DNA of 64,000 nt from a virus (IMGVR_UViG_3300037307_000543:3138-67137); one strand, 5' to 3'. Counted from the first letter of the stretch, positions 4,445 to 42,262 are shown. Translations and numbers: made by a program. Notes: generated by a model not told the origin, from the sequence alone.

Positions 4445-4782
4445 CGGGGTTCCTCCTCTTTGTTCTTCTTATCTTCCAATTCGGGTTCCCCTACAATCTT
4501 GTCCAAATACGTATATGGGCAATCCGGGTCTTGACACTGAGCGATCCTTTCTTCAGTAGCCTTTCTCTTGCATTTCGGACAAATACTTCCGATTTGCTCT
4601 TTGGAGAACAGGCCCGCGGACCTATCGTTCCCGGCGCTCATGTATCCAGAAGTCGTTGATGTGTCAATGGATTTTTCTTCAACATTAACAGAGTCGCCTT
4701 TCATCCATATTGGTGCGAACAGCCAAAAATCTGGAACCAACGAAACAAACGGTTTATCTTTTACAGCATCAGAAAAACTCAT
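4441..4782 (-). CDS. Small Cys4 zinc-ribbon-like protein
   Basis: Likely start at ATG 4782 (ATGA overlap with the upstream stop); CPKC...CQDPDCPY. Confidence 0.6.
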   Translation of the reverse strand: MSFSDAVKDKPFVSLVPDFWLFAPIWMKGDSVNVEEKSIDTSTTSGYMSAGNDRSAGLFSKEQIGSICPKCKRKATEERIAQCQDPDCPYTYLDKIVGEPELEDKKNKEEEPR

Positions 4783-11294: not shown

Positions 11295-12323
11295 TTAATC
11301 CGAACTCCACTTAAGACCAGATCTAAGATATCTTGCGAGTTCTGCCGCCCTTGTAAGCTCCTCTTTCAAAACCTTATCCTTTATTGGTCTCTTCAGTCTG
11401 TCTTCAAGAATATCCAATGATTTTGATGTATTCAAAAGATCCTTTCTTTTTTGAAGAGGAAGAAGACCCGTTTTGCCCATATTCTTCACCCTTTGAGAAA
11501 GCATCAAAGCCATATCCTTTACGGCAGGACCTGCGGCTTTCTGGATGATTTGAGAAGAGGAAAGACGTTTTTTCCTCCATTGAGTGGGATCAAAATAAGA
11601 AATGTCCCGCTCTGAATCTCTCTTGGCCTTCCTCGGACTATTCTGTTTGGAAAACAACAAGTCACGAGCCTCTCGTTCCGCTTTTACAATCTCTGTTGGA
11701 ATACGTTCTTGATCCAGCGCCTCTCCAAGGCCATGATAAGACGCAACATCATCGTGCAACTTTTTCATTTTTTTTGCAGCCTTTGTATACCCCCTGGAGA
11801 TGGTAAAGCCTCCTTTCTCAACAATCATCGAATCGTCAAGTTCCTTGTATCGTTGACGCAGTTTCCGACTAATAACGTCAGAAATAGACCCAACCCTTTT
11901 TTCCTTTTCTGGAGAGAGTCCGAAACTGGAAAGCGGATTATTAAATTGAGAAAACTTGTCACCAAGAGTTTCTTTCATTCTGTCAACCGCGCTGATGATA
12001 ATCCGCTTGTCCTTGGGAGAGGTTTTTTTGTATTGTTTCAAAAACTCTCCTGCACCAGAAAGAGGAGAAGCGCTCGCTCTTTTCGCCTCTTGCAAAACCT
12101 CTTTGATCGCTCGTGGAGCTTTCTCAACAATCATCGAATCGTCAAGTTCTTTGGCCTCAATTCCCCACTCCTGCCCTCGCTCGGCCAGCACCTCATCCAG
12201 AGTCTTCCTGGCAGGCTCAACGGAGAATTCCTTTTCAATCAGTTCTTCAGGCTCCATGTTCTTGCACGTTCCGCCCTGAAGATCCATCGTCACAAAGCTT
12301 GCTTTTCCTCTTTTGTCAGACAT
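11295..12323 (-). CDS. Basic head-module protein with two KELDDSMIVEK repeats
   Basis: Likely start at ATG 12323 (AGGAGG upstream); 29-bp identical DNA repeat at 11815-11843 and 12121-12149. Confidence 0.7.
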   Translation of the reverse strand: MSDKRGKASFVTMDLQGGTCKNMEPEELIEKEFSVEPARKTLDEVLAERGQEWGIEAKELDDSMIVEKAPRAIKEVLQEAKRASASPLSGAGEFLKQYKKTSPKDKRIIISAVDRMKETLGDKFSQFNNPLSSFGLSPEKEKRVGSISDVISRKLRQRYKELDDSMIVEKGGFTISRGYTKAAKKMKKLHDDVASYHGLGEALDQERIPTEIVKAEREARDLLFSKQNSPRKAKRDSERDISYFDPTQWRKKRLSSSQIIQKAAGPAVKDMALMLSQRVKNMGKTGLLPLQKRKDLLNTSKSLDILEDRLKRPIKDKVLKEELTRAAELARYLRSGLKWSSD

Positions 12324-12334
12324 TGGAAGCCCTC

Positions 12335-14740
12335 CTAAGATTTCTCCGCCAGGACCGGTCTTCTCACGCACCGACAGTTCGGATGAAGCGTTGCCGATTC
12401 TTTGTACACCTTTCCGGTTCGATAATCCTTCAAAATGGTCCCGTGATTCGCTCTACAATTCTTCTCCGGATTTGAGTCATTACATACCCGCTCATCAAGC
12501 GCAGTCCACAAGACCGCTTTCTCGACAACGATTCTTCCCGCGTCCTTGTTTACTTTCTCAAACGACGCATCAGATCCCACATCCAATGCGCCGGAAAGCT
12601 CAGTTCGAGCAATCATAGACGCCCGCGCGGACCCCATATCAGCAAATTTCTCGCGAATGAGGTCCGCGACATCTTCTACATCCATGCCTTCCTTGAGCCC
12701 CGTCTTAATGATCTTCGTGATGGTTTTCTTAATCGTCCTACTTCTCAGCGTTGCCGACTGGTCGAGAAATCTACCGGCAGCATTGTATGTGGCCTCGTCC
12801 GGAGAAATGCCAAGCATTCCGCCAAGACCTTTCTCCACCAATCTCAGCCCGAAATTAAATCCAATGTCAACCGCCTTCATGATAAACAGACGAGACGATT
12901 CTTTATATTCGTATTCAAACTCATTCAAATCAAAGACTTCATCAGGTTCCTTAGTAACAATACCATTCGCGTTTTTCTTGACAATTTCTGATATCTGTAG
13001 TCCTTTGCCAACGAGAAACTTCTCAGCGACGGGTTTATAGATATTTTCAATAGCCTCAATCGCAGGAAGCATCTCTTCATAGCATTTGTAAACCACTCTC
13101 TCGTCTTCAGGCAGAATCTCTTCAATATATTCATCAATCCCTCTCGTAATAAGCTTCATCAATCCATCTTGAGAAGAAAGCTTTCCAAGATTCTGTGTTG
13201 CAGTCTGGATAGTTGGATTTGCTCGCATAAAAGCGGTCAGTCCTCCACGATTGCCACGAGCCGCATTGATAAGCGTAGAGAGATTGGGCGAGTTTCCCCT
13301 CATGGATTCTTTCAAGAGCCCCATAAGGTCGCCCTCCGGCCTCCCTCCAGTCATTCCAAACTGTCCTTGAAGCGCTGGGGCGCCTCCGCCCATCATGCCA
13401 CCTTGTGCGGCCATAGATGCACCGGCAGCAGCCGCAATGCTTTCATCCCATACCTTGTCCGCCTCTGAGTTGATTCCTCGAATCGGCTGTCCATTCATCC
13501 AAGGAACGTAGCACAGCGGAGAATCGAACGGCTTTTGGCCCCTTCTCAAGCGTATTTCATTGATTGTGGTCAATCCCATAGTCAATTCGCCCTGGTTTTT
13601 AGCAAGTTCCCATTCGTCATCTTTCGGATGAGCCGACTCATAGGTAAAAATAAGGCTCTTCGTGCTCTTAAACTGAGATCTGAGCTGAAGATTTATGCTT
13701 CCGGCAAGCACCTTCAATCGAGGAAGAACCGAATGGTCCACAAAGGTCTTCTCGGCCGCAATATCGGACGCCTTAGATGAAGCCCCCATAAGCCCAAGCA
13801 TAACCTCTGGAACCCCATACGCGGCCAAGATATTATCTTTGGTCCATTCACTCAAAGCCATGAACTCAAAGTCCTTCGCGGACATTCCCACTTGCTCGAT
13901 CTTTGCTTCTCCGGTAAGGACCGCGGGCTTAAACTGTCGCCCTGGCCCGCGATGTTTTGCGTTCCACCCTTCCGAAAGCCGTTCGGCTTGAGCCTTTGGA
14001 ATGGGGTGAGCAGGAACAATCACGAAATCCGGCCTTGCGTTATTCTGAAAAAAATCCTTCTCATAGACCTGAAGATAGAGATCCAAATCAGTGACGTGCG
14101 CCAGGGCTTGAATGGGGGTAAAGGGAAGCACCGGATTCATCGGATTCGGATAGTGGAAATAGACAACATCTTCGTACGGATACTCTCTTCTAAGCTGCTT
14201 CTGATAAGGAGATGCGAACACGAACTTATCAATGAGCCGATCAGTAGAGTTTCCCATCATGATCGTTACCAATTCATTCGGATTCATCAAATAAAGCTCT
14301 CTCGGGGCACCGATTGCATCTCTGATGATAAGCCAAAAAGCACATCCACACAGATCAAGATACATCTGCGTAGCTGCGAAAAACTGCTCTCCGTCAAAGT
14401 ACTTATTTGGCCTTCTCAGAAGCTCCAGGAGGGGGTGATGAAGAATTCGGTCAAACTCTTCATCGTTCGGCTGGCCAACCTCTTTGTACAGATAGAAGGG
14501 AACAGAGGCTACTTTGTTTTTGATCAGATTCACACAGGGATAAACCCAAGTACGATACTTGAGAAGTGCCTGTTGAGCATTAACTGTAGGGTTCAGAGTT
14601 CCAGGATTGGCATTGGAAACAGTAGAAAGCGTTCTCGAATTAAGCTCTTCCCACCCTTTTATTACCACGACGCCTGGATACTCATCAAAAAAATCTCGGT
14701 CTTTGGAAAAGGCGCTTCTCAGGCGATCAAGGAATCCCAT
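12335..14740 (-). CDS. HK97-family portal protein fused to a MuF/SPP1-gp7-like head morphogenesis domain
   Basis: Portal motifs VYPCVNLIKNKVASVP, DVVYFHYPNP, KDFEFMAL, ILAAYGVP; C-terminal ARTELSGA, WTALDERVC, HPNCRC. Confidence 0.9.
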   Translation of the reverse strand: MGFLDRLRSAFSKDRDFFDEYPGVVVIKGWEELNSRTLSTVSNANPGTLNPTVNAQQALLKYRTWVYPCVNLIKNKVASVPFYLYKEVGQPNDEEFDRILHHPLLELLRRPNKYFDGEQFFAATQMYLDLCGCAFWLIIRDAIGAPRELYLMNPNELVTIMMGNSTDRLIDKFVFASPYQKQLRREYPYEDVVYFHYPNPMNPVLPFTPIQALAHVTDLDLYLQVYEKDFFQNNARPDFVIVPAHPIPKAQAERLSEGWNAKHRGPGRQFKPAVLTGEAKIEQVGMSAKDFEFMALSEWTKDNILAAYGVPEVMLGLMGASSKASDIAAEKTFVDHSVLPRLKVLAGSINLQLRSQFKSTKSLIFTYESAHPKDDEWELAKNQGELTMGLTTINEIRLRRGQKPFDSPLCYVPWMNGQPIRGINSEADKVWDESIAAAAGASMAAQGGMMGGGAPALQGQFGMTGGRPEGDLMGLLKESMRGNSPNLSTLINAARGNRGGLTAFMRANPTIQTATQNLGKLSSQDGLMKLITRGIDEYIEEILPEDERVVYKCYEEMLPAIEAIENIYKPVAEKFLVGKGLQISEIVKKNANGIVTKEPDEVFDLNEFEYEYKESSRLFIMKAVDIGFNFGLRLVEKGLGGMLGISPDEATYNAAGRFLDQSATLRSRTIKKTITKIIKTGLKEGMDVEDVADLIREKFADMGSARASMIARTELSGALDVGSDASFEKVNKDAGRIVVEKAVLWTALDERVCNDSNPEKNCRANHGTILKDYRTGKVYKESATLHPNCRCVRRPVLAEKS

Positions 14741-15240
14741 TACTTGTTCCCAAACTCGTCTTTAAGAATCTTCTCAAGGTTGTCATTGTCGTCATCAAGC
14801 TTAAAAGCTGCCTTCTGGAGCAACTCTTCACGCTTCTTGTTCTTTTCGACAATCTTCGTCATCCATGAATCCTGACGAACCAAGCTATTCACAATCTTCT
14901 CTCTAAACGAAGAAAACCCAACAGCAAGATGCCCCACTTCCTCGTCTGGAGGGAGTACTTCGGGCTCTTTCGGACCAAAATCTTCTTCATGAGACACGAC
15001 AGTTTCTCCTTTAATCGTTTTCTCAGACGTTTTCTCGCCCTCTTCGGTGAGTTCGGTCACTACGATGTCTTGAATCTCTTTACAGTGAACAATGACCCCT
15101 CCGGATGGAGTATCGAACGACTCCACTCCGGATTTAGACTCCCGTATCCGTGCTAGAGCGGCTTCGACTTCGCTTTGCTCGCTCATCAGCAAGGACACGG
15201 GAGTATGATTCACGTACTTGAAGGTGAGTCTAAAACTCAC
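14740..15240 (-). CDS. Hypothetical head-module protein
   Basis: Translationally coupled to the portal gene; contains IVEK. Confidence 0.65.
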   Translation of the reverse strand: MSFRLTFKYVNHTPVSLLMSEQSEVEAALARIRESKSGVESFDTPSGGVIVHCKEIQDIVVTELTEEGEKTSEKTIKGETVVSHEEDFGPKEPEVLPPDEEVGHLAVGFSSFREKIVNSLVRQDSWMTKIVEKNKKREELLQKAAFKLDDDNDNLEKILKDEFGNK

Positions 15241-16437
15241 TTACTTCTTGACCTTTCCTTTTGGAACTCTCACGACCGAGGAGCACTTGAAGACGAAATC
15301 CTCTTCGTCAGCACCTTTCTCCTTACGAGTTGCTCTATAGACACCATAGCCGCCAGCGCCAAGAGCAGGAACCGCAGCAATGGCAAGACTCTTCTTGGGA
15401 TTATCCTTAATCCACTGAATTGCGGCTTCAGTTGCAGTTGGAGTGATCTTCCCAAACTGCTTCGAGAGTGCGCGACGAGTCTTGTAGGCAGGGATTCTCC
15501 CACTCTCTCTGCCCCTCAGCCACTCGGACTTCTTCGGAGCAGCGGCCTGAGCATCGCTGATTTCTCGGCTTTTGGTCCCGTAAATGTCGCCCGCAGCGGC
15601 CTTCTCAACGAAATCGGCAAAGCCTTTCTCCTTCCGTCTACTCAAAGCATAGACTCCGCCGCCGATAAGACCAGCCGCACCAAGCCCAGCCGCGCCCGTT
15701 CTGTACGGATGAGCAGCAGCATAACGACCAACAGCTTTTCCGCCTTCGGCCACTTTGCTCGCCGCAGCACGCACCTTCGGCTCGACATAACCCCGTGCCT
15801 TTTGGTACGCGCTTACAATACCCTCTTTGGCCTCACGAGTTTTTCTGCCGACAGGAGTCTCGCCAGGAGTCACTTTGACATCCCCGCCCTCCATCGAAAA
15901 TGTCCGACGAGTAAGATCCTCCTTGACAGGATTCTTCATCTTTTCGACCAAGAGGCTGTCATCAACCTCTTTTGCGACCATCCACTTCGAGTCAGACTCG
16001 CGAAGAGCAAGATGATCCGCTACCGACTTCTCGATAGTGTCGAACGAGCCGTCGATATCGTAGCGAGAAAACGAGTTCTGATCAACCACGAAGCCCTTCT
16101 CAACCATCTGGTTGTAGGACTCCCAACCCTTCTCGATCTCGTTTTTCTCTCCACCGAGATTCTGTGCGTCGGAAACGTAGGTTGCCTCAATGTCCTTTTT
16201 CGCCTCACCAGCTACTTCGGACAGATCATCCGCCATTGTGGTGCCGGGACCACCGGGCTTGTTCTCTCCCGGCTTGATGTTCGCACCACTTCTGTCAACT
16301 CCGGCAGAATCAACTCCGGCAGAATCAGTCACGTCCCGACCAGGATCAGCGGGAAGCGTATCCTCTGCATGACCATCGCCCTTGAAGACACTGAATTCCT
16401 CAAGGAACCCCTTCTGTACCAAGAATTCGTTGCTCAT
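15241..16437 (-). CDS. Head-module polyprotein-like protein with repeated (V/I)EK-G motifs and glycine-rich hydrophobic segments
   Basis: LVQKG, IEKG, MVEKG, KEVDDSLLVEK, EKGFADFVEKA; GAAGLGAAGLIGGG and AVPALGAGGYG segments. Confidence 0.7.
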   Translation of the reverse strand: MSNEFLVQKGFLEEFSVFKGDGHAEDTLPADPGRDVTDSAGVDSAGVDRSGANIKPGENKPGGPGTTMADDLSEVAGEAKKDIEATYVSDAQNLGGEKNEIEKGWESYNQMVEKGFVVDQNSFSRYDIDGSFDTIEKSVADHLALRESDSKWMVAKEVDDSLLVEKMKNPVKEDLTRRTFSMEGGDVKVTPGETPVGRKTREAKEGIVSAYQKARGYVEPKVRAAASKVAEGGKAVGRYAAAHPYRTGAAGLGAAGLIGGGVYALSRRKEKGFADFVEKAAAGDIYGTKSREISDAQAAAPKKSEWLRGRESGRIPAYKTRRALSKQFGKITPTATEAAIQWIKDNPKKSLAIAAVPALGAGGYGVYRATRKEKGADEEDFVFKCSSVVRVPKGKVKK

Positions 16438-16526
16438 TGTCTTTACCTCGCTTTTTCCTTCAAGCAGCCTCTATCGGACCCTCTCCTGAAGTCTCATGCC
16501 TGCCTTAACGGCCCAGCACGATGTTC

Positions 16527-18812
16527 CTAATTCTTCTTTCTCGATCTTTTGCCCATAGCTTCAATTCCGCCATAGTAATAAAGCTTCTTCAAGCCCTTTC
16601 CCACTGGATATTCGTCGTCATCTCCACTCAAACCATAATACAGACCCGCTCCACCAAGAAGAGCCGCACCGCCAAGACCATATTTCATGCCCCTAGAAAG
16701 ATCCTCTTGCGGCTTAGTAGCTTTAGGCAAACTCGGCTTAACCACCGAAGGCGGCTCAAAACGTTCCGCAGAACGAGACGGCGAGGGCGCTGACCTAACA
16801 GGAGAAGTCGGCTTATTCGCCTCTCTCAACTTTCTCGCGTGTTCCGATTGGCGAAAAGCAATCTCTTCTGCTTCATCAAAAACTCCACCGCGGCCTACCC
16901 GAGTTCCCGCCGCACCAGTGCCGGTAACGGCTTCGGCCCCAACAGGAATCTTTGGTTTTCTAGGCTTAAAAATATTCGTCACTTTTCTCAATGCTTGAGG
17001 CCACTTCTCAACAAGTTCATTGGCTACTGTTTCATAACGCGAAACACCCTTAATCATAATAAAGTCTTCACCTTCTATCGGCCTAATGAAGTTTGCCGCT
17101 TCATTCCGAACATATACCTTCCTGTGACCAACAGATCCGGCCCGCTCTCTAGTTCCAGCCGCTCGTTTATAAAGCTCCTGTACCGGTTCCCACTCTCGCG
17201 CTTCCTTTAAGCTCTTTTTATCTACCTTTTTGATGTTAAGTCGCTTTAGCCCTCTCCCACCTAAACCTCCCAAAAGAGCCCCGCTTGCTCCACCCGCCAA
17301 CGCTCCTCCAATAGCCCGAACAGCTTTTCTATCCTGTTCCTTTGTCGAAACATATCCACCGGCTCCTCCCAAGGCGGCCCCTACTCCAGCACCAATTAAG
17401 GCTCCTTTGATCCCCTTTTCCACTATTATAGAATCATCAAGTTCTTTCGCCTTCGTCGGCTTCAGATTCAACTTCGCGTTTCCGTGTCCGGTAGCAGTCT
17501 CCAATATATTCCTCTTAGCAAGAGCGATCCTCTTCGTCTTTGCCTCTGGCATATACGCTTTTTCCTTTTTCTTGTTCTGCTCTTTTATCGCAGCCTTCGG
17601 GGCTCCTTTCGCAGCTCCTTTGGTAAGACCCGTAGCAATTGTTTCAAATCCTATACCCCCCGAGGCCGAGCCTCTCCCGGCTTCCCCAAGGGAACTTCTT
17701 ACTACCTCAAATAGGATTCCTTTCTCTACGATCAAGGAATCATCAAGCTCTTTGACTACAAATTCCTTCTTCTTCAAATACGGCTGTCGCCCCTTTTTAT
17801 ATGCAGCAAGCGCATCGTCAAGTTTCTTTCTATACGCTGCAAGCTCTTCAATATTCGGTTTAGGAATCCTTTTTCCTGACTCATAAAGAGAATCAGCTAT
17901 CAGTTCTTTCGCCGTTTTATCAAAAATTCCTTTTTCTACAATGAGAGAGTCATCGAGTTCTTTAACAACCTGAAGTTTTCTATTCAAGGCCGCTTCTGCC
18001 GCATCATTCGCTCTCCTCATCTTCTCAACATTGGTCAAGGTCCTTTTAATGTTAGCCAATCTTTTAGAGCTATCGTCAAGAGTGGCATTAATCTCTCTCA
18101 TATGAGCAGCATAGCGATCAGCATAGTTAACGACTTCCTTTGCTAAATTAGCCTGTGCCCTTCCGGCACTTGAAATTACCGATCCAGCGCCTCCCACTGA
18201 TGCTCCCAAAGATCCGCCTATAAGAGCGCCCATTGCGGCCCTTTTCAAACGATGTTCTTTTTGTTTCGCGGTAGCCGCTGCGGTTCCAGCCCCACCAACA
18301 GCACCAATTCCGGCACCAATCGATGCAGCTTTTACAGCTCCTTTCTCGACGATGAGAGAGTCATCGAGTTCTTTGGCAACAGCCGCATCTCTCTCCAAAT
18401 ACTTCTTCCCAAGATGTCCAGCCGCGATGCCGCCTCCAACCATGAGTCCATATTTGCCCAATTTTTTCCAATTGATAGGTTTATGTCCAAGGGCGCGTTC
18501 ATAATGTTCTACTGAAGCCTTTGACACGAAGCTTTCTCCTAAAGTGGATTCAGAAACTCGTGTCCCTAAACTAGAATCATTCTCCCCCTTTACTTCAAAA
18601 CCATCCTCTCCTATATCCTTATATACAGGACGCACCCCAAGATCATCCGCGACCTCCTGAAGGCGCGCTTCAAGACTCGTCTCTCTCTTCGCTGGATCGC
18701 GAGTCGAACCTTCGAGAATAGACTCTTTATCAAACTCTTGAACAACAAGTGAAGGCTTCTGATCTACCTTCACCTCGTCCATTACGGCAAATGTGCTTTT
18801 TTCTCGCGGCAT
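16527..18812 (-). CDS. Head-module polyprotein with four KELDDS(L/I)IVEKG repeats and glycine-zipper segments
   Basis: Repeats at about 17413-17447, 17718-17753, 17928-17963 and 18339-18374. Confidence 0.75.
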   Translation of the reverse strand: MPREKSTFAVMDEVKVDQKPSLVVQEFDKESILEGSTRDPAKRETSLEARLQEVADDLGVRPVYKDIGEDGFEVKGENDSSLGTRVSESTLGESFVSKASVEHYERALGHKPINWKKLGKYGLMVGGGIAAGHLGKKYLERDAAVAKELDDSLIVEKGAVKAASIGAGIGAVGGAGTAAATAKQKEHRLKRAAMGALIGGSLGASVGGAGSVISSAGRAQANLAKEVVNYADRYAAHMREINATLDDSSKRLANIKRTLTNVEKMRRANDAAEAALNRKLQVVKELDDSLIVEKGIFDKTAKELIADSLYESGKRIPKPNIEELAAYRKKLDDALAAYKKGRQPYLKKKEFVVKELDDSLIVEKGILFEVVRSSLGEAGRGSASGGIGFETIATGLTKGAAKGAPKAAIKEQNKKKEKAYMPEAKTKRIALAKRNILETATGHGNAKLNLKPTKAKELDDSIIVEKGIKGALIGAGVGAALGGAGGYVSTKEQDRKAVRAIGGALAGGASGALLGGLGGRGLKRLNIKKVDKKSLKEAREWEPVQELYKRAAGTRERAGSVGHRKVYVRNEAANFIRPIEGEDFIMIKGVSRYETVANELVEKWPQALRKVTNIFKPRKPKIPVGAEAVTGTGAAGTRVGRGGVFDEAEEIAFRQSEHARKLREANKPTSPVRSAPSPSRSAERFEPPSVVKPSLPKATKPQEDLSRGMKYGLGGAALLGGAGLYYGLSGDDDEYPVGKGLKKLYYYGGIEAMGKRSRKKN

Positions 18813-18866: not shown

Positions 18867-19160
18867 TTATTCTACGACTTCGACCGGTGTGCCAAGAGTT
18901 TCAGAAACTACTTCTTCAGTGGCCTGCTTCACGGTCTTCTCTATGAACTCATCGAAGGCGAGAAGCTCATCAAGCAACTCTTCTGTTGCGTCTTCTGGCG
19001 CTTTCTTAATCACTGAATACGCAGAAGCAAAGGCTCGTCCTTCGTCTTGATGCTTCTTGTAAGCGCTATTCCAAACATGAACCCACATTCGAGCTTTTTT
19101 TGCTGGAAGTTTCTGGACATTCTCCGGAAGAGAGGAAATATCATCAGGGTTATATGGCAT
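18867..19160 (-). CDS. ChaB-family protein
   Basis: MPYNPDDISSLPENVQKLP..ARMWVHVWNSAY..DEGRAFASAYSVIK fits the ChaB pattern. Confidence 0.8.
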   Translation of the reverse strand: MPYNPDDISSLPENVQKLPAKKARMWVHVWNSAYKKHQDEGRAFASAYSVIKKAPEDATEELLDELLAFDEFIEKTVKQATEEVVSETLGTPVEVVE

Positions 19161-20025
19161 CTGAGTTTCTCCTTCTTATGTTTTTAGCCCTTCCTCTAAA
19201 GTTTTCTTTCTTTATAGCGTCTTCAAAATACATGCCTCTAGCAATTCTATTCCGCAAGGTGCTATAGCTAAACCCAAAAAATCTTGCCCATTGTGCCAAG
19301 GTTTTCTTCATTCCATTGTATTCAATCCAGACATTATCTTTAGCATCATTAACTCCAAATATAGTATCAACGTCCTTAAAACTTCTTTTATCAATAGCTA
19401 TATCAAATGGAACTCCTATATTAATTCTATACCAAAGATTATGATATTTAATTCCATAAAACTCTGCCCACTGTGACAAAGTTCTCTTTTCTCCATTATG
19501 ATCTACAACAATATTTCTTCTAGTATTATTGCACTGAATTTTCCTATCTACAAATCTTACATTAGTAGGTTCATAGTTTCCATCATTATTTATTCTATCT
19601 ATAGTTAATCCTTTAGTATATCCAATAGAAATAGCATCCTCAATAAAGCTCTCTATTGTTTTCCATCGTTCACAAACTATTATACCCCTAGCGCCGTAAT
19701 CTCTATAATGATAATTATCACTATTAAAACATCTATTCATCATATTGTTCCACATTGGATATAATTCGTGATAAGAAAGGCCATGTTTTATCTTATTGTC
19801 TTTTCTTTTAGATACTTCTAATTTATAACATCCACATGACTTGGTACTTCCAGAAGTCAATTTACTAGGAATAACTTCTACTATGTTTCCACATTCACAA
19901 ATACACTTCACATAACTCACATTCCATCCATTTTTACGTTTCTTATATAAGAATTCAACAGGAATCAATCTTCCATATTTCTTATTCAATTCTATTTTAG
20001 ATTTTCTAATAGATTTGTAACTCAT
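19150..20025 (-). CDS. Free-standing HNH-family homing-endonuclease-like protein (paralog 1)
   Basis: YGRL, CICECG, KSCGC, YGARGIIVCERW, TIDRINNDGNYEPTN; visibly AT-rich. Confidence 0.8.
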   Translation of the reverse strand: MSYKSIRKSKIELNKKYGRLIPVEFLYKKRKNGWNVSYVKCICECGNIVEVIPSKLTSGSTKSCGCYKLEVSKRKDNKIKHGLSYHELYPMWNNMMNRCFNSDNYHYRDYGARGIIVCERWKTIESFIEDAISIGYTKGLTIDRINNDGNYEPTNVRFVDRKIQCNNTRRNIVVDHNGEKRTLSQWAEFYGIKYHNLWYRINIGVPFDIAIDKRSFKDVDTIFGVNDAKDNVWIEYNGMKKTLAQWARFFGFSYSTLRNRIARGMYFEDAIKKENFRGRAKNIRRRNSDAI

Positions 20026-20700: not shown

Positions 20701-21768
20701 CTACAAGATAGCCAGCTCTGGCATATCATAAAACGCCAACGCCAATGCGTCTGCCCCGTCCGGAGATTCTCCAAGTTCTTTCTTGATCGTAAGTTTATCC
20801 ACTATCCTATAAAGCCCCCCATCTGAACTCGGTTTGAACTTAGTGTACGCAACCTGTTTAGCAAGCCTTTTATCGCTCGGCAATGAAATCATTCCTTCTC
20901 TGAACCGCTCCTGAAGGACAAAATACATCTCGGCACGTTGGTTAAGACATCTCAGCGAAGGATTTCTCGGACGCTCGTTAAAGGCTACACGAGTAAGGGT
21001 TACTTCTCGATCCATTTCAATTTCTTCTAACCTGGAAGCTATAGCTACACCAAGCCCTCCGGTTCTATCCAGCACGCACTCCTCTACTCCATACTCCTCA
21101 AATGCTCTGCACATAAGACCAACAACTTCCATCGGATCTCTATTAGGGTGCCACTGAACGTCAACCACATGAGGACCATGCCTGATCACAAAACAAGACG
21201 CGTCTCCGGCTCCAGTCCCAAAATCCGCTCCCATAACGACTTTGGTATCATCCATGAGAAGCTCTGGAAAGTCATTAAGAAAAATCGGCTCACATGTCCT
21301 TCCCCTGCGCTCAAGTGGATCTTCCTCATCCCATTCCTCTTCGCTATCTAAAAGCTCGTTAGGATTGATGCCATCGAATTTTCCAGAGCTTGTGTCATCG
21401 TCAAACTCAAGATCTTTGATACTGATCTTATCAACTATCATTGGCTCCGCTTCTTCAGCAGTTAGCGGAGCGTACTTCTTGTTGATCTCTTCCGCATCAT
21501 AGTACGAAAAATCCGAAGCCTTCTTAAGTTCTTCCTTAATTACATCAATATCCCACTCTGGAGCGGAGAAATCCTCACACGCGGCACGCATGAGATCAAT
21601 CGTTTCGTTAATAAGCTCTTTCTTTTTCTTAAAAAGAATCTTGGATTTCTCGGCGCTGTAAAGCTGATCAGCGATTGTTCTCAGTCTGGGAGCCTGCTCG
21701 GCATCGTAGGAAATCTTTGAAAGGAACAACAGAACAAGCTGAGTAAAGGTAAGTGGCTTATCAGACAA
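20701..21768 (-). CDS. terL: Terminase large subunit, stand-alone nuclease (RNase H-like) domain with N-terminal extension
   Basis: VMGADFGTGAGDASCFVIRHG, VLDRTGGLGVAIASRL, NQRAEMYF, IKKELGESPDGADALALAF. Confidence 0.88.
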   Translation of the reverse strand: MSDKPLTFTQLVLLFLSKISYDAEQAPRLRTIADQLYSAEKSKILFKKKKELINETIDLMRAACEDFSAPEWDIDVIKEELKKASDFSYYDAEEINKKYAPLTAEEAEPMIVDKISIKDLEFDDDTSSGKFDGINPNELLDSEEEWDEEDPLERRGRTCEPIFLNDFPELLMDDTKVVMGADFGTGAGDASCFVIRHGPHVVDVQWHPNRDPMEVVGLMCRAFEEYGVEECVLDRTGGLGVAIASRLEEIEMDREVTLTRVAFNERPRNPSLRCLNQRAEMYFVLQERFREGMISLPSDKRLAKQVAYTKFKPSSDGGLYRIVDKLTIKKELGESPDGADALALAFYDMPELAIL

Positions 21769-23000: not shown

Positions 23001-23681
23001 CTATTTCATATCTGAAGAATATAAAAATATCTGCTTATGTCTAACTTGTTTACTATTTCTAAAAATTTCAGCCATCTCGCTTATAGAGCGCCCCTTTCTA
23101 AAATGATACGATATTATACAACCAGATACTCCAAAAAATTTTGCCCAATCCTTAAGAATCATGCTGTTCCCTTCATGCTCTATCCAAAAATTGGTTCTTC
23201 TGTTTCTGGCCTGTTCTTTTGAAGTCGCCCATTTGCAATTTCCTGGAGAGTAATATCCGTTGTTATCTATTCTTTCTATCGACATTCCTTTTGGACATGG
23301 CCCCATGTCCTCATAAAAATTTTCAAATGACTTAAGCCAACGATCACAGACCTTAATGCCCCTTGCACCATAGTGACCATAGTATTTGCTATTTTCATTA
23401 TAACATCTCTTGATCATAGAAGACCACACATTATATTCTTTAGTAGTTAAGTTATCTCTAGCATGACCGTGTTTATAATTGACTTTTGCACAAATTTTAG
23501 ACGCAATCTCTTTATGCAAGCACCCACAGCTTTGCGTATAGCCAGCTACCAAATTTCCTCCATAAACAACCTTTTCCGTGCCACAAACACACTTGCACAA
23601 CCAACGACCAGATCCGCTATAAGAAAGAACTAGCAATCTTCCAAATCTTTTACCATTTAAGTCAATGAGTTTTGCCATCAA
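23001..23681 (-). CDS. HNH-family homing-endonuclease-like protein (paralog 2)
   Basis: FGRLLV, CKCVCG, SCGC, YGARGIKVCDRW, SIERIDNNGYYSPGNCKWAT. Confidence 0.8.
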   Translation of the reverse strand: MMAKLIDLNGKRFGRLLVLSYSGSGRWLCKCVCGTEKVVYGGNLVAGYTQSCGCLHKEIASKICAKVNYKHGHARDNLTTKEYNVWSSMIKRCYNENSKYYGHYGARGIKVCDRWLKSFENFYEDMGPCPKGMSIERIDNNGYYSPGNCKWATSKEQARNRRTNFWIEHEGNSMILKDWAKFFGVSGCIISYHFRKGRSISEMAEIFRNSKQVRHKQIFLYSSDMK

Positions 23682-24358
23682 TATCCTCTATCTTCATTCA
23701 TTTCGGTACTGACTCGTCCATTTTGCCATATTCCCTCATACAAATCATTTTCTATACCAGACAAATAGAAGAAGGCAACAGAAGCTATTCTTGCTCTTCT
23801 CTCAATAAAAACTGGCACAGAAGACGCGTTCGACAATCCAAAAGTAAGAATTCCAGAAAAATTTGGATGAACACTGCTCGTTATTAAATTTAAGCCACAT
23901 CTAAAAAGAGTTGTTCTTGAAGACACAAAGGCCCTTATCATAGAGGGAATGCTCAACACCTCAACAGTGGTAACTAAAAAATATTTCATAGGAAATATCG
24001 CATATCCAACTTTTCCATCTTCAGTCTGCATTAAATCGCACTTCCTAATTTCAGGAGTCCTCCTCTTCTCAATTCCAATCAGAGCAGGAACAATAAAACC
24101 TTGTTGAGCTATCTGATTTCGATCCAAAGATGGATTCAAAATCTTGGTAACGGTGGGAAATGGTTCATAACACTCATCAAGCCTCAGATCAAAGCTTCCA
24201 CCCTCTATGAAGTCCACATCAGGAGCATCGACAAGATTTCCATCATTGTCATAGATCCCAACAAGCGGCTTGAGAGACTCGATTCCCTTTTCGTCTCTAA
24301 TAATTACTCCATCGCGGATATAGCTTCTGATCTGATCGCTGGTAAGGCTAGTCATCAC
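23678..24358 (-). CDS. dcd: dCTP deaminase (trimeric dUTPase/dCTP deaminase fold)
   Basis: GSFDLRL, LVTTVEVLSIP, SSRTTLFRCGL, VHPNFSGILTFGLSN, RIASVAF. Confidence 0.8.
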   Translation of the reverse strand: MMTSLTSDQIRSYIRDGVIIRDEKGIESLKPLVGIYDNDGNLVDAPDVDFIEGGSFDLRLDECYEPFPTVTKILNPSLDRNQIAQQGFIVPALIGIEKRRTPEIRKCDLMQTEDGKVGYAIFPMKYFLVTTVEVLSIPSMIRAFVSSRTTLFRCGLNLITSSVHPNFSGILTFGLSNASSVPVFIERRARIASVAFFYLSGIENDLYEGIWQNGRVSTEMNEDRGY

Positions 24359-24528
24359 AAAATCTCCTCATCCAAATCAGCCTCATCGTGAATCCTCCTC
24401 ATCATGATACCCACAACCCCAACAGACGCAGAAAGAGTAAGAATCGCGGCAGTTAGTTTCTTTGCGTCATCATTATTAAATATGAATCTATCAAGATACG
24501 CCATATAAGCCTCAAATGATTCATCCAT
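24355..24528 (-). CDS. Small hypothetical protein (57 aa)
   Basis: Manual translation MDESFEAYMAYLDRF...; AGGAG ribosome-binding site; overlaps the dcd start. Confidence 0.5.
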   Translation of the reverse strand: MDESFEAYMAYLDRFIFNNDDAKKLTAAILTLSASVGVVGIMMRRIHDEADLDEEIL

Positions 24529-24625
24529 TTTCTCTCCTTTTAGTTTGGGCGGGCCGAAGCCCGCCCTTCCAGAGAAGCGTAAAACCCGGTGTAAAATAAG
24601 TGCCCTTTATAGCAAGGGGACTGTT

Positions 24626-25276
24626 CTATAGTCCTTCACCATTCCACTTTACCCGTTTACTGTTCCGAAAGATCTCGACTATCTCATCGAAAGAGTGGCC
24701 TTTTTTGAGATGATAGCAAACAGAACTTATATTCACTTGAAAAAGCCTTACCCAATCTTCAAGAATCATTTTCTTTCCACCATAGGAAAACCAATGATTT
24801 CTTCTCGTGTTTCGATTTTGCTCATAATTGGTTGCCCATTTGCAATTTCCTGGGGAGTAATATCCGTTGTTATCTATTCTTTCTATCGACATTTCTTTTG
24901 GACGTGGCCCCATATCTTCGTAGAAGTTTTCAAATGACTTAAGCCAATGATCGCAAACCTTGATGCCTCTTGCACCGTAAATACGATATTTATTATTGTT
25001 CTTATTATAACATCGGTCTTTTATTCCTACATAAGTGCTATATTCCCTACTCTTATAAAGTCCATGTTTAATTCTTATAGGAGACTTGTTTTCTGCTTTT
25101 AAGCAACCACACGACTTGGTTTCTCCTCTTATAAGCTGATCGCGACGAACAATTGTCATGCCCCCGCAATCACACTTGCAAACCCAAAACGAATGGCCAC
25201 GTTTGTTACTACCGCGATACGATAGAACAATTAAGCGACCAAATCTCTTTTCGACCAAATCAATCAATCTTGACAT
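24626..25276 (-). CDS. HNH-family homing-endonuclease-like protein (paralog 3)
   Basis: Same motif set as paralog 2; shares a 143-bp near-identical DNA block with it. Confidence 0.8.
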   Translation of the reverse strand: MSRLIDLVEKRFGRLIVLSYRGSNKRGHSFWVCKCDCGGMTIVRRDQLIRGETKSCGCLKAENKSPIRIKHGLYKSREYSTYVGIKDRCYNKNNNKYRIYGARGIKVCDHWLKSFENFYEDMGPRPKEMSIERIDNNGYYSPGNCKWATNYEQNRNTRRNHWFSYGGKKMILEDWVRLFQVNISSVCYHLKKGHSFDEIVEIFRNSKRVKWNGEGL

Positions 25277-25327
25277 ATCATTTTTTATCTAGGAGGACAG
25301 ACTCACTCCATCCTCCTCGATACCTCA

Positions 25328-27073
25328 TCAGAACTCCACCAGCACCGAGCCCTGCAAGCCAAAGATGGTTGACAGATCTCTATTCGGATCTATCCTCACT
25401 CCTTCACCCTGGCCCGTAGAAAGCGGATTCGGAATCGTGTTGAGAGTAGAGAGATCCTGAAACGCGTGTTTGAACCATTGCCCAGGCTTCCACCATTCCA
25501 TCCTCATTCCGAACGTAAGCGCCTCCAAAAGCTTCCACTGAAGACCACAGCCGATGGAGTTACCAAGAAAGTTATCGGCTACGACTGGAGCAATTGTCGG
25601 CGCAGAAGAAATCCCGCCCCCATACTGGCCCCATATCGTAGAGTTATTGGAAGCCCTTCTCGAATAGAGAAACGTACCAAAAAGGTTCAAGTTCGACGCT
25701 ATGGCATAATCCAATCTGATCCCAAGCCCAAGATAATCATAAAAGACTGGATAACCAGAAGCGTTATAGCTGTTGTTTCCCGTACCAAAAAACGGTAAAA
25801 CAAAGGCATAAGGATCTACCGCCTGCCATCTGTTGCCAGAAACGGTGTAAAGCTGAAACTTATCATCTACCGGCCTTCCCGTAGAAGTTCCCGTAGCGGC
25901 CGCGAAGTTAAGGGTTCCGTTCGACGTTTGATGCCCAGAAGAGTAAAAGTGAACAAGTGTCGTCTTCAACGGCCCCGCTATCGTCCCCATTTCAACCATC
26001 CACGCGAGAGGTGTACCCGAAATCTGCCTCCCTCCCGTGCGAACAACCGAAATCTTCTGATAGCCAAATTCTCCGTTGAAAAAGAACCCGCCCCTCATGT
26101 ACTTGAGATACGCAGAGAGAGTATGGAAAAAGATGTCACTGTGAATTGGAAAATTCTGTAAATCGGTTCCGTCGCTTCCAGCCCCGCCAGAAATAACTCC
26201 CTCACTAAGCATGGCAAAAGCCGCACCGTTCACATCATCACGCAGGGTCCACGTCGTGAACGGTGTTGCATGTACTCCTCTCCATGCTTGACTGCGAGCA
26301 AGAAACCCAATATCGGCAGACCCATCTCTGTAAATAAGGCCAGCGTACACGTCAAGCTGCTTCTGCTCGGTCCTATCAAATGTAGAAGCAACGGTTAACG
26401 GAGTCCTATCCTTATTCCTTGTATCACCGCGAGAGGAAAATTCTCCCGTATCGGAGAGTACGACAGCAGTCAAAAAGGAAAGAGGACCATAGGGAACCAC
26501 AAGCCGCACAAAATCTGCCCTGTAGTCTCCAATGGTCCATCCAAGGCCGAACTGAAAAGGTGTTCGCCCAATAGAAATCTTCCCCCACGGAATATCCGCA
26601 TCTACCCAGAGCGACCTGACCCCAGGAACCGCGATAGCATTCTCAGGTTCAAGAGTGCGAGAAGAAAGGCGAATATAGCCAGCATACGGCTGTGTATTAA
26701 GCCAGTTGCTACCGCCCACATACTGCCCATTAAGGTCTCCAGAAAAGCCAACTTCGCTATTGACCCTCACGGCCTGATTCACAATAAATTTTGGCCACAA
26801 GACAAGGCGTTGAATCCAAAAAGATCCGTCACTTCCTTTGGAACTCAATCCTTCCGTAAGGAGCACGCCATTAACCGGCCCAGGGAAGCCTATCGTAGTT
26901 TGACCGCTCCCAATCGAACTTTGGGCTGTATCAATATTCCCAAAGAGACTGTTTTTCCCAATTTGGGAAAAGTAAACGTATTTGTTCTCGTATATAACGG
27001 GAACATCGAAAGAAAACGCCATTGCACTTGTCGTCACACAAAGCGCAAGAAACAGAAACAGAAGCTTTTTCAT
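25328..27073 (-). CDS. Outer-membrane beta-barrel (porin-like) protein
   Basis: Sec signal peptide MKKLLFLFLALCVTTSAMA, alternating hydrophobic strands rich in aromatic residues and Gly, C-terminal ...GSVLVEF. Confidence 0.75.
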   Translation of the reverse strand: MKKLLFLFLALCVTTSAMAFSFDVPVIYENKYVYFSQIGKNSLFGNIDTAQSSIGSGQTTIGFPGPVNGVLLTEGLSSKGSDGSFWIQRLVLWPKFIVNQAVRVNSEVGFSGDLNGQYVGGSNWLNTQPYAGYIRLSSRTLEPENAIAVPGVRSLWVDADIPWGKISIGRTPFQFGLGWTIGDYRADFVRLVVPYGPLSFLTAVVLSDTGEFSSRGDTRNKDRTPLTVASTFDRTEQKQLDVYAGLIYRDGSADIGFLARSQAWRGVHATPFTTWTLRDDVNGAAFAMLSEGVISGGAGSDGTDLQNFPIHSDIFFHTLSAYLKYMRGGFFFNGEFGYQKISVVRTGGRQISGTPLAWMVEMGTIAGPLKTTLVHFYSSGHQTSNGTLNFAAATGTSTGRPVDDKFQLYTVSGNRWQAVDPYAFVLPFFGTGNNSYNASGYPVFYDYLGLGIRLDYAIASNLNLFGTFLYSRRASNNSTIWGQYGGGISSAPTIAPVVADNFLGNSIGCGLQWKLLEALTFGMRMEWWKPGQWFKHAFQDLSTLNTIPNPLSTGQGEGVRIDPNRDLSTIFGLQGSVLVEF

Positions 27074-27145
27074 CTATTCCTCCTTAAAAACACACACTAC
27101 CTTTTTCTCAGAAGGCTGCTGGAGCGAGCGTTCATTGATTTTGGC

Positions 27146-27230
27146 CTGAAGCTTTACAATTGCCTTTGAGCCTCTCAACACCTAAAGGTGAAAGATTCCG
27201 GACTTGATTATGCCGCCACATAATCAACCT
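27146..27230 (-). ncRNA. IS200/IS605 right end; 3' part of the omega-RNA plus predicted guide
   Basis: GGAATC-TTTCACCTTTAGGTG-TTGAGAGGC-TCAA matches the typical tnpB right-end layout, ending at 27166. Guide would be AGGCAATTGTAAAGCTTCAG (27165-27146). The 5' boundary is unknown. Confidence 0.65.
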
Positions 27231-28266
27231 CGTGGATCGCTCCGATCCCGACAACGAGAGTGTTGACAGCAGCGTTGATGTCTCTGTCATGTAGAGTTCC
27301 ACACTCTGAACACTTCCATTGTCTTACCGACAAGCCCGCCAATCCTGAAGGACCAGTTAAGGCACCACAAGACGAACAGGTCTTGGTGGAATTATTGCTA
27401 TCAACTTCAACATATTTCCTACGACAAGAACTGCACTTATAGGAAAGCATTCGTTGAAGTTGATAGTGGCCCGAAGAGGCCACCGATTTACCAAATCTCT
27501 TAGAAATGGCTTTTATATTATCTCTACTAAAAACAATTATGGAATTCTCTGAAACTAATCGCCTACTTAATTTGTGATTACGATCCTTCCTCTTGTTAGC
27601 TATCCTTTCATTAATTCTAGCGGTCAATTTTTTATTCTTTCCTCGCTGAGCCTGTCCTAACCTTTTAATTCTCTTCTCAAGTTCCTTCGGGTGTTTTATC
27701 TTCTCCCCCGTTGAAAGAGTTATAAGATGTTTGAATCCTGGATCTATCCCAACAGCCCCATTACCCACTATTGGAATCTCGTTAGGATTAGTGTCAATTA
27801 CCAAACATAGATACCATCCAGAAGCCTTTTTAACAATTCTACCATTCTTGATTTTGCCACCTAGCAAAGTCTGTTTATGAAACCGAGTCTTGCCAACTCC
27901 AGGAATAGAAATGTGGTTATTTGTTGGCGGCCTAAACGGATCGGGAAAATAAATACTATTAAGCTTGTTTCTCTGTCCTTTAAGCCTTGGACTTTTGGTT
28001 CTTTTCTTAAAACAATTAATCCAAGCCAGATAAGCTTGAGACAGAACACCTTGTAAAACATGGCTAGGTATAGCAAGTTTTTTACTATGGTTTGCAAGCA
28101 GATTTTGAAAGTCTTTGGGAGAATGATAAATCTTGTTTTGAGCATCTAACTCTATTTTTCTAATGGCCCAATTCCAAACACCCGTAAGGTTCCATAGCCA
28201 CTCATTAAGTTGAGTTTCTTGTTTACGAGTCAGTCTTAATTTTAATTGTCTCTGAATCATTGGCAT
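27208..28266 (-). mobile_element. tnpB: TnpB-family RNA-guided protein (IS200/IS605-type, no tnpA seen) with atypical RuvC-II
   Basis: QLKLRLTRKQ, VGIDPG (RuvC-I), STKTCSSCG and WKCSECG zinc finger, HDRDINAA (RuvC-III); RuvC-II reads IIVFSRDN instead of IviEdL. Confidence 0.88.
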
Positions 28267-28275
28267 TCTCTTTCA

Positions 28276-28359
28276 CAGAGCATAGAGGAAGCAAGGTCTC
28301 GTAAAAAATACGTTGCTTGTCAGTTCTGCTTCATAAAGTCTTGCTTCCTCTATGCTCTG
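28276..28359. repeat. Perfect 20-bp inverted repeat upstream of tnpB
   Basis: CAGAGCATAGAGGAAGCAAG (28276-28295) and CTTGCTTCCTCTATGCTCTG (28340-28359), 44-nt loop. Confidence 0.85.
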
Positions 28360-28407
28360 GTCTCTATCCCTTTACCACAACCAGTTGCAGGTGTCAAGAA
28401 AAATCGA

Positions 28408-28797
28408 CTACACTTGCTTCTCGATAGCGTCCATGAGCTTCCTAATGTTCTCCATAAGGGGAGACATAAGCCCAACCTCTTCGTTGATCTCGATGAACTT
28501 TTTCATCTTCTCCCACTTACCATCAGAGGAAGAAATGTAAATAGGAGTTCCTACAGGCGGCATTACATCCTTCAGAGACGCGACTTTCGGCTTCTTCTTT
28601 TTGATAATCCTCGCCAGCTCTCCTTTCATCTTGCTCGTAGCCTTTATCAAAGCTGCATCGGCCTCCTTTCTCCTTTTGTACCACCCTTTCATGTACTTGG
28701 ATCTGAACTTCTTCTTGCAATCGGGATCTCCACATTGCTTCTGAAGCTCATTGGGTGTATGAAACACCTTTCTGCAAATCTCACATATTTTTTTCAT
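28408..28797 (-). CDS. Zinc-ribbon/coiled-coil hypothetical protein
   Basis: CEIC...CGDPDC at the N-terminus. Confidence 0.65.
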   Translation of the reverse strand: MKKICEICRKVFHTPNELQKQCGDPDCKKKFRSKYMKGWYKRRKEADAALIKATSKMKGELARIIKKKKPKVASLKDVMPPVGTPIYISSSDGKWEKMKKFIEINEEVGLMSPLMENIRKLMDAIEKQV

Positions 28798-34019: not shown

Positions 34020-35006
34020 TCAAGAAGGAAATTCTGCATCCGGATACTTCTTAATAAAGTCCGACACCTCTGAATTCGGCACATACACCTTCTCTCCATT
34101 AACCTCAAGCACCACATACCTTCCTTTCCAATTCGCCGGAACGGTTAAAGCGTTCTCTACGCTCCACCCGCTCCTTAACCTACTGACAATCAGCTCATAG
34201 TTTAATCCTGTCTTCTTCGCCCACCACTTCATAGAGGCTGTCTTTCCGTTATGAGTTATCGTCTTTGCACTTCTAGGAATATAAGGCTTCGTTAGCGCTT
34301 TTTCCACAGTCCATCCGTTCCTTATTCTGGAGCGCAGCGCTTCCGGATGTATTCCTACCTTCTTTGCCCAACTCCCTATTGGGGCCGTTTCTCCCTTATA
34401 TGTAATTGTCTCTGTTGGCATCCTTTCTTGACAAAGACGGAACAATTTATCTTCCGGCCAATTCCTGTTTAATCTATAATAAATAACATAAGGTGAAATT
34501 CCTACAAGCTCGGCAACAAGAGAAACCGGAAGAAGTTTTCCATTATACTCAACTAACCTGTTAGTTCTTTTATTTCGACATTGCTCTTTCTGGGTGGCCC
34601 ATCTGCAATTGCCAGGCTCATAATCTCCGTCATTATCAATCCTCTCTATCGCATATCCTTCCGGTCTTGGCCCCATATCTTCGCAAAATGCCTCAAATGA
34701 TTTTTTCCATCTATCGCACATCTTTATTCCACGACCGCCATAGTTTTTGTAAGCTCTATTGCCCTTGCTATAACAGCGTTGTTTTATTCCTTTCCATATA
34801 GACCAGAGAGGCCCCTTTTTCTCTTCCATCATTTTCCTTTTTTTTGAGTTGTAGCATGTTCTACATGACTTGATTCCACTCTTAAGGGCAAGACGAGTTA
34901 CTTCAATTTCTTTTCCACAAGAGCATTTACACAGATAGGTTGTTTCTTCAAGTCGCCTTAACACCTTTAGCGAGCCTACTGTAGTCCCTTCGTATGTTTT
35001 GACCAT
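34020..35006 (-). CDS. HNH-family homing-endonuclease-like protein (paralog 4) with three C-terminal DNA-binding repeats
   Basis: YGGRGIKMCDRW, IERIDNDGDYEPGNCRWAT; repeated ITY/HxG...W...G...LRSRI..GWTVE.AL units. Confidence 0.8.
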   Translation of the reverse strand: MVKTYEGTTVGSLKVLRRLEETTYLCKCSCGKEIEVTRLALKSGIKSCRTCYNSKKRKMMEEKKGPLWSIWKGIKQRCYSKGNRAYKNYGGRGIKMCDRWKKSFEAFCEDMGPRPEGYAIERIDNDGDYEPGNCRWATQKEQCRNKRTNRLVEYNGKLLPVSLVAELVGISPYVIYYRLNRNWPEDKLFRLCQERMPTETITYKGETAPIGSWAKKVGIHPEALRSRIRNGWTVEKALTKPYIPRSAKTITHNGKTASMKWWAKKTGLNYELIVSRLRSGWSVENALTVPANWKGRYVVLEVNGEKVYVPNSEVSDFIKKYPDAEFPS

Positions 35007-42095: not shown

Positions 42096-42262
42096 TAATG
42101 ATGCCCCACGTGCCATTTACCACAAAGACCGCATTTCCAAGCTTTGAGCCTAGTTGGTCTTCTGCAATCCGGCGCTTTCTTTAATTCTTCAATCCATTCT
42201 TCCGCTTTCTCTTTTGTTTTGAATGGTTTTTTCCTGTAACATGAAAGCAATCCACCAGCCAT
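42095..42262 (-). CDS. Small zinc-finger protein (55 aa)
   Basis: Manual translation MAGGLLSCYRKKPF...AWKCGLCGKWHVGHH; coupled on both sides. Confidence 0.6.
   Translation of the reverse strand: MAGGLLSCYRKKPFKTKEKAEEWIEELKKAPDCRRPTRLKAWKCGLCGKWHVGHH

Follow-up and report, generated by a model that had tools for sequence, protein, structure and literature searches.

A predicted outer-membrane channel protein encoded by an uncultured phage, from a porin-like family of Desulfomonilales

The barrel gene and its predicted fold

The subject of this study is a gene for a putative outer-membrane beta-barrel protein found in IMGVR_UViG_3300037307_000543:3138-67137, a stretch of viral DNA of 64,000 nucleotides that is referred to below as the window and that forms part of an IMG/VR virus contig record of 67,871 bp (estimated completeness about 71%). 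In a first-pass annotation, made from the DNA sequence without database searches, positions 25328-27073 had been ascribed to a large phage-encoded barrel protein of 581 amino acids (aa), with a cleavable signal peptide and a terminal phenylalanine. An open reading frame (ORF) of this length does occupy exactly these positions, on the minus strand, and both ends of its product agree with the earlier description. The features of the gene are listed below, with the grounds for each in brackets (AF2, AlphaFold2).

25328-27073, minus strand: outer-membrane beta-barrel precursor, complete ORF of 581 aa plus stop (ORF list, translation, AF2 barrel, fold matches)
27017-27073, minus strand: Sec signal peptide, codons 1-19 (predicted signal-peptidase I site after A-M-A)
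27079-27085, minus strand: strong Shine-Dalgarno sequence AAGGAGG (5 nt upstream of the ATG, read from the sequence)
25331-25360, minus strand: last 10 codons, final beta strand of the BAM beta-signal type (alternating hydrophobic residues, terminal Phe)
25286-25322, minus strand: stem-loop directly 3' of the stop codon (RNA fold of 25277-25330)

As read from the sequence, the N-terminus of the precursor bears two lysines, a hydrophobic core and the A-M-A motif in front of the predicted cut between residues 19 and 20, and it contains no lipobox. The signal region (residues 2-15) was modelled by AF2 as a detached helix, and full-length homologs have the same N-terminal layout, in which A-x-A is followed by W-E-F. 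At the other end the protein finishes in ...VLVEF; the last strand of the model comprises residues 569-580, and F581 is conserved in at least 90% of 111 family sequences.

Structure prediction was run twice, with alignments of different depth. The first run, based on 22 sequences, yielded a model that resembled a barrel, with poorly predicted loops and a predicted local distance difference test score (pLDDT) of 71.6; the second, based on 111 sequences drawn from the fetched loci, reached a mean pLDDT of 89.3 and a predicted template modelling score of 0.88, with no segment below 50. Nearly all of the model is made up of long antiparallel beta hairpins, whose connections are turns of two residues on one side and loops of up to 68 residues on the other, and the predicted structure is a closed antiparallel transmembrane barrel. 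A Foldseek search of the Protein Data Bank (PDB) returned 390 matches at E <=1e-3, and the top matches listed were all outer-membrane barrels, led by AlgE (E 5.6e-16), the MOMP protein of Campylobacter jejuni and the Occ/OprD channels. VIA-align, a fold comparison independent of Foldseek, gave the following Z-scores (paired values refer to model 1 and model 2).

C. jejuni MOMP (PDB 5ldt): Z 25.4 / 22.5 (about 350 residues aligned, 3.6-3.8 Å)
AlgE: Z 23.7 / 21.3
Occ/OprD and ChiP: Z 19-23
LamB/ScrY: Z 17-20
16-stranded general porins: Z 12-17.6
22-stranded TonB-dependent receptors: Z about 11

Since the scores were highest for 18-stranded barrels, the modelled fold probably places the window protein in the 18-stranded channel class. 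It does not have the combination of a 16-stranded general-porin fold and a Porin_1 match, as no Pfam match was obtained and the scores for the general porins (12-17.6) stand against 19-25 for the 18-stranded proteins. The barrel proposed in the first-pass annotation is thus borne out by a high-scoring prediction and by two independent fold searches.

A Desulfomonilales family and its phage clade

Sequence searches with the window protein (P0001) were largely silent. No match was found in Pfam, NCBIfam or PHROG, even at E 1 to 10, nothing real was found among PDB sequences either with the single protein or with a 111-sequence profile, and tblastn against 50,697 GenBank phage records gave no match. 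The likeness to the OprD family lies in the fold only (Z 19-23), the protein having no Pfam match to that family at E <=10. Two of 22 relatives matched PF13372 (Alginate_exp) weakly, the best at E 0.0017 and short of the gathering score of that model; P0001 itself had no such match at E <=10. In the ESM Atlas, the neighbours were 'putative porin' clusters of Thermodesulfobacteriota, and by structure a TM score of 0.66-0.69 to PF13372 clusters was obtained. It seems best to regard the family as a remote and so far undescribed branch of the AlgE-like barrels. Our literature search found no paper on it and none with the phrase 'phage-encoded porin'; a porin that appeared in an AEM 2025 paper proved to be a host protein, not a viral one.

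The family is small and of narrow distribution. Out of 1.84 billion, its representatives numbered 788 at a threshold of E 1e-3, falling to 521 at 1e-10 and to 305 at 1e-30. When reference genomes were scanned, one per species and 185,579 species in all, 352 loci were obtained, and the best 80 of these lay nearly all in metagenome-assembled genomes (MAGs) of Desulfomonilaceae, Desulfomonilales or 'Syntrophaceae', which agrees with the resemblance to Desulfobacterota porins that the first-pass annotation had offered as an unverified impression. Within the same phylum the family was present in only 5 of 251 sampled genomes. Five genomes that were checked contained 13-27 family matches each, some of them in tandem. 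The 89 neighbours of host copies fell into 122 Pfam families, none met more than six times (PAS sensors, 3-hydroxyacyl-CoA dehydrogenases and response regulators are among them), and no fixed operon partner was found among the neighbours examined. Compared over its full length with 110 family members (alignment A3), the window protein is 25-51% identical to them. Conservation across the family reaches >=85% at 69 positions, and the window protein has the conserved residue at 63 of these, the family median being 66 and the minimum 61.

Two of the tandem host arrangements may be described here. In MAGs of Desulfomonilaceae and Syntrophales, locus L033 has copies at 9989-11737 and 12256-14025, and L022 at 7695-9395 and 9932-11587; the members of these pairs group together in the tree, and they point to recent local duplication as one route of family expansion. 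A few records bear labels from outside the lineage. Two identical loci, L029 and L032, are assigned one to a Desulfomonilaceae MAG and the other to a Terriglobia MAG, and a few family members (L006, L035 and L012 were noted) sit on short contigs of MAGs labelled Pseudomonadota or Pseudomonadales. Such labels are probably binning or labelling errors, not true occurrences outside Desulfomonilales.

The closest relatives of the window protein (P0002-P0016) share 39-51% identity with it and are metagenome proteins encoded on contigs of 21-72 kb. One of them, P0006, occurs with an identical sequence on 75 contigs, the longest of 69.9 kb, and P0009 and P0016 lie on contigs of 68.3 and 65.5 kb. To set the phage copy against its host relatives, trees were built with FastTree (116 family members) and IQ-TREE (57 members). 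In both, the window protein, P0002-P0016, the copies designated L001 and L082 and the partial copy L083 form one clade of 18-19 rows (support 99), which is nested among host clades and contains no MAG-binned sequence; besides the window copy and the copy in a second phage it comprises 16 metagenome clusters. Its sister (support 91) is a host clade with several paralogs of a single Desulfomonile tiedjei MAG, and its longest terminal branch is the window copy. Given any root outside the phage clade, the topology gives host to phage as the direction of transfer. All members of the clade that are not cut by a contig end are intact full-length ORFs, and none appeared among the reference-genome hits. 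That most of them are phage-borne is indirectly suggested by the contig sizes, the absence from reference genomes, the composition, and the viral nature of both long contexts (two of two).

A fragmented copy on a 140-kb MAG contig, L079, was considered as a possible prophage or link to a host, and was rejected. IQ-TREE places it in host clade B, it is 64% identical to L086, it shares only the outer-membrane protein (OMP) gene with the window's phage and the second phage described below, and the genes around it are such as one would expect on a bacterial chromosome whose assembly is prone to frameshifts. In the MAG concerned (G006; L079 at 10001-11901 and elsewhere) many family copies are split by frameshifts or stop codons and other genes are fragmented too, a picture that fits long-read assembly errors rather than real pseudogenes.

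Base composition was compared between each copy and the DNA that carries it (GC fractions; GC3, GC at third codon positions).

Window copy: gene 0.488, carrier 0.461 (window)
L001 copy: gene 0.522, carrier 0.488 (whole G001 record)
L082 copy: gene 0.394, carrier 0.374 (contig)
L083 copy: gene 0.481, carrier 0.450 (contig)
Host paralogs, mean ± standard deviation: gene 0.546 ± 0.032 (GC3 0.619), surroundings 0.533 (fetched loci)

Each gene of the phage clade is near the GC of its own contig and well apart from the host paralogs, and the GC3 of the window gene takes a middle rank among window genes, far from the host genes. Within the phage clade the long loops are conserved at least as much as the strands. 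Three of them are shorter than in the nearest host clades, with median lengths in phage and host of 37 and 49 residues (residues 112-148), 34 and 40 (206-239), and 29 and 42 (473-501). Taken together, the composition, the conserved positions and the conservation of the loops argue for an old capture from host to phage, followed by continuing constraint, and against mis-assembly and decay.

The second carrier of the gene is a phage of 98 kb in IMG/VR, IMGVR_UViG_3300044260_000037, which bears copy L001. Neither the capsid protein nor the portal nor ORF 41100-42116 of the window had a match in it, and comparison of the whole records showed that the two phages have in common only the OMP gene, HNH genes and two weak matches. 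The barrel gene has therefore moved between these otherwise unrelated phages, or it was kept while all else was replaced. Two extra scans of IMG/VR revealed no further viral carriers. Around its barrel gene, L001 has an island (4323-7527 and 15210-18522) of at least five glycosyltransferase or GtrB-like genes, together with a QueE-like radical-SAM gene and a peptidase, possibly for remodelling of the cell surface; the window's record showed no counterpart.

Genomic setting in the carrier phage

The earlier ascription of the barrel gene to a phage is supported both by composition, as above, and by its setting, since phage genes flank it on both sides, co-oriented and with short gaps. The immediate neighbours and the hallmark genes are as follows.

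1333-2667: major head protein, co-oriented with the other phage genes
12335-14740: portal, co-oriented
20701-21768: terminase-like gene, co-oriented, 355-aa ORF (large-terminase PHROG matched by its C-terminal half only, residues 154-349)
24626-25276, minus strand: HNH homing-endonuclease gene directly downstream of the barrel gene (phrog_374, E 2e-66)
27208-28266, minus strand: TnpB of the IS200/IS605 type directly upstream of the barrel gene (Pfam Cas12f1-like_TNB and OrfB_IS605, phrog_506)

Replication genes of the carrier record encode a DNA polymerase, a primase, and DnaB-like and other helicases; a UvsX-like recombinase, SbcCD-like nucleases, a dCTP-deaminase-like protein, a DNA methyltransferase and at least four paralogous HNH endonucleases are encoded as well. 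No integrase, tyrosine or serine recombinase or resolvase was found across the 67.9-kb record. With its own replisome and no integrase found, the carrier looks virulent, and probably is, in a record that is only about 71% complete.

Adjacency to TnpB is confined to this phage and looks incidental, which speaks against a functional pairing of TnpB with the porin. The four known upstream neighbours of the barrel gene, in the window and in L001, L082 and L083, are all different (TnpB, a QueE-like radical-SAM gene, an RNA 2'-phosphotransferase and an ORF of no known function), and with four contexts and four upstream neighbours the barrel gene behaves as a single-gene insert. An HNH gene also lies 3' of it in L001, 47% identical to the adjacent one in the window. 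We considered whether the OMP and HNH genes might form one mobile cassette, and found no support for this, as the adjacent HNH of L001 is no closer to the adjacent one in the window than to another HNH there, and both phages are rich in HNH genes.

HNH paralogs of one PHROG family (phrog_374/3377) occur in the window at 19150-20025, 23001-23681, 24626-25276 and 34020-35006, all on the minus strand, and in L001 at 5660-6172, 12064-12717 and 14638-15303, with fragments near 16100 and 19250. The window has no fewer than four of them and a 22-kb stretch of L001 several, and the dCTP-deaminase-like gene (23678-24358) lies between two of the window copies. The family looks like homing endonucleases in active spread that are common to otherwise unrelated phages.

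As to expression, the stem-loop behind the barrel gene is more stable than expected by chance (25277-25330: -20.5 kcal/mol, z -4.86, none of 200 shuffles as good) and has an 11-bp core. It lacks a U-tract, being followed by an A-rich run and then by the HNH start codon, and a simple terminator scan made no call; it is possibly a transcript-end or stabilising hairpin ahead of the next gene. A simple scan found nothing convincing as a promoter just upstream on the minus strand, and the barrel gene is probably transcribed as part of a longer minus-strand transcript. The gap of 134 nt between the TnpB stop and the barrel start (27074-27207, minus strand) is the expected site of the TnpB guide (omega) RNA and of the right end of the element, and the ribosome-binding site of the barrel gene is located at its downstream end. 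An Rfam scan of 24400-28700 matched no family.

Possible function and relation to known systems

The most likely role of the protein, in which we have about even confidence, would be that of an added or substitute diffusion channel in the outer membrane of the infected cell that supports phage replication. We rate this role highest because the family resembles substrate channels, because its loops are conserved rather than diversifying, and because the gene content of the carrier is that of a virulent phage. Numerous scattered paralogs without a fixed partner recall the situation of the OprD/Occ substrate channels, and metabolic helper genes are common in phages that have their own replisome and lack an integrase. 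According to the proposed mechanism, an ancestral phage would have captured one copy of the Desulfomonilales porin-like family, and phages would since have kept and exchanged the gene. During infection the precursor would be exported by Sec and cut after Ala19, and the barrel would be inserted into the host outer membrane by the host BAM machinery. The added or substitute diffusion channel could then re-tune outer-membrane traffic, most likely towards greater nutrient uptake for phage replication, in a host that would be a slow-growing anaerobe.

Several observations weigh against such a role. The DSSP assignment on the model lists 19 long beta segments, whereas the best matches would lead one to expect 18 strands. 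The genes beside the host copies offer no hint of a substrate, and the three shortened surface loops fit receptor replacement equally well. The host is assigned from the phylogeny of the barrel gene alone; TnpB gave no second link to it, since none of five Desulfomonilales-type genomes contained a TnpB match at E 1e-10. Moreover, in a record of about 71% completeness the virulent lifestyle is an appearance taken from a partial genome.

Receptor replacement, or superinfection exclusion, is the main rival, though a less probable one, and it is compatible with channel activity, so that the two roles are not exclusive. Here the phage copy would be a receptor-incompetent stand-in for a host paralog used in adsorption; it would dilute or displace the receptor, shield the infected cell and spare the progeny from binding to debris, with Lc of phage PA-2 as the paradigm. 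Such a stand-in could account for the shortening of the three long loops, for the presence of the L001 copy within an island of surface-remodelling type, and for the sharing of the barrel gene by two otherwise unrelated phages. On the other hand, swapping one paralog is not obviously protective in hosts with 13-27 family matches per genome, the loops do not diversify within the phage clade, no companion regulator or known small RNA (sRNA) was found beside the gene, and the two carriers have no detectable tail or structural genes in common, so that a common receptor is not indicated. We regard as improbable that the protein is an AlgE-like exporter, an exit pore in the outer membrane for a polysaccharide whose synthesis the phage directs and which alters the cell surface. 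AlgE chains do head the Foldseek matches and score Z 21-24, weak PF13372 matches exist in the family and in the atlas clusters, and glycosyltransferases flank the L001 copy; yet MOMP and the Occ channels match equally well, P0001 has no PF13372 match even at E 10, no gene of the GT2 or GT1 families was found in the window's 67.9-kb record, and glycosyltransferases are outside the top 25 families flanking the host paralogs.

That the gene is a mere passenger of mobile elements, of no use to the phage, seems very improbable. Its position between TnpB and HNH, the recurrence of an HNH gene behind it in L001, and the long terminal branch of the window copy are what one would expect of a passenger, but the three other known contexts lack TnpB, and with so many HNH genes in both phages one beside the barrel gene is to be expected by chance, the one next to the L001 copy being no closer to its counterpart than to another HNH of the window. 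Nor does a useless gene sit well with clade members that remain intact ORFs at 39-51% identity, with the conserved positions kept in the window copy, or with a composition that is fully ameliorated. It is hardly credible that a host gene was mis-assembled into phage DNA, or that a contig of the host was mistaken for a virus. Outside the phage clade the family is bacterial, and the contigs of IMG/VR come from metagenome assembly; nevertheless, the co-oriented phage genes with short gaps on both sides, the mid-rank GC3 of the gene, the clade-mate in an independent IMG/VR phage and the lack of phage-clade members among reference-genome hits all speak for a true phage gene.

Returning to the proposed diffusion channel, we may tentatively, and with some doubt, combine it with the phylogeny. 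The phage proteins could form a phage-specific porin lineage that split early from one branch of Desulfomonilales OMPs and has been kept and exchanged by unrelated, probably virulent phages as a host-takeover device with trimmed loops. If this is true, rebuilding of the host outer membrane during infection, for feeding, receptor replacement or both, would be routine among phages of slow-growing anaerobes, and the same OMP family would be a prime candidate for the receptors of these phages, the host paralogs being the obvious ones to consider. Because the family is so narrowly distributed, the barrel gene could also serve as a practical host-prediction marker for uncultured phages. Desulfomonilales are anaerobes of sediments and groundwater, and to our knowledge their envelope is essentially unstudied. 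Our results define an undescribed OMP family, without a Pfam or NCBIfam model and with a predicted fold like that of AlgE, MOMP and OprD.

AlgE is both the top structural match in Foldseek and, through PF13372, the closest named sequence family, and it is an 18-stranded barrel. However, the sequence match is below the Pfam threshold, the window contains no gene set for alginate or another polysaccharide, and the host paralogs are many and scattered. The OprD/Occ proteins of Pseudomonas and Acinetobacter are 18-stranded as well (Z 19-23), and the host family resembles them in having many paralogs scattered among catabolic and regulatory genes; they differ in showing no sequence relationship, and the window protein exceeds them by about 150-200 residues and has much longer loops. 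C. jejuni MOMP, which gave the highest single structural score, is about 10% identical; no Pfam match was obtained, and MOMP is a chromosomal protein of a different phylum.

Phage-borne barrels have been found elsewhere. Two proteins of uncultured phages in BFVD, A0A6J5L4P1 ('OmpC porin') and A0A8S5S2G8 ('Phosphate-selective porin O and P'), are porin-like barrels too, from phages of other hosts; with TM scores of at most 0.41 and 7-9% identity to the window protein, they belong to other porin families. We know of no study of any porin-annotated phage protein in BFVD. Lom is a small 8-stranded barrel of the Ail/Lom type and Bor a lipoprotein, and neither is a channel, which sets them apart from the window protein. 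What they share with it is that they are extra OMPs carried by a phage, and both are expressed as such from phage lambda (PMC8065619).

The nearest parallels are Lc and NmpC. Both are OmpC-type porins, 16-stranded and of about 340-370 aa, from temperate enterobacterial phages, and NmpC is the cryptic-prophage counterpart of Lc, associated with the IpeX sRNA. Like them, the window protein is a full-size outer-membrane channel protein, as judged from its predicted fold, with a signal peptide, derived from the host's own porin family and encoded on a phage genome. It differs in its length of 581 aa, in its 18-stranded best matches and in having no Pfam porin match, and its carrier differs in having its own replisome and no integrase that could be found. 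Lc of the lambdoid phage PA-2 and NmpC alter the set of OMPs in the infected or lysogenic cell (PMC8065619 and references cited therein). That phages carry OMPs is thus already established through Lc, NmpC, Lom and Bor, and current ideas are not overturned by our finding. What is new is the protein family, its probable 18-stranded class, the host lineage, and a long-lived, phage-specific clade common to unrelated phages. Composition and phylogeny suggest that a porin gene can persist for long in phages and can occur in unrelated phage genomes, and phage-borne porins, known mainly from temperate coliphages, are hereby extended to a phage that appears to be virulent and whose probable host belongs to a distant phylum.

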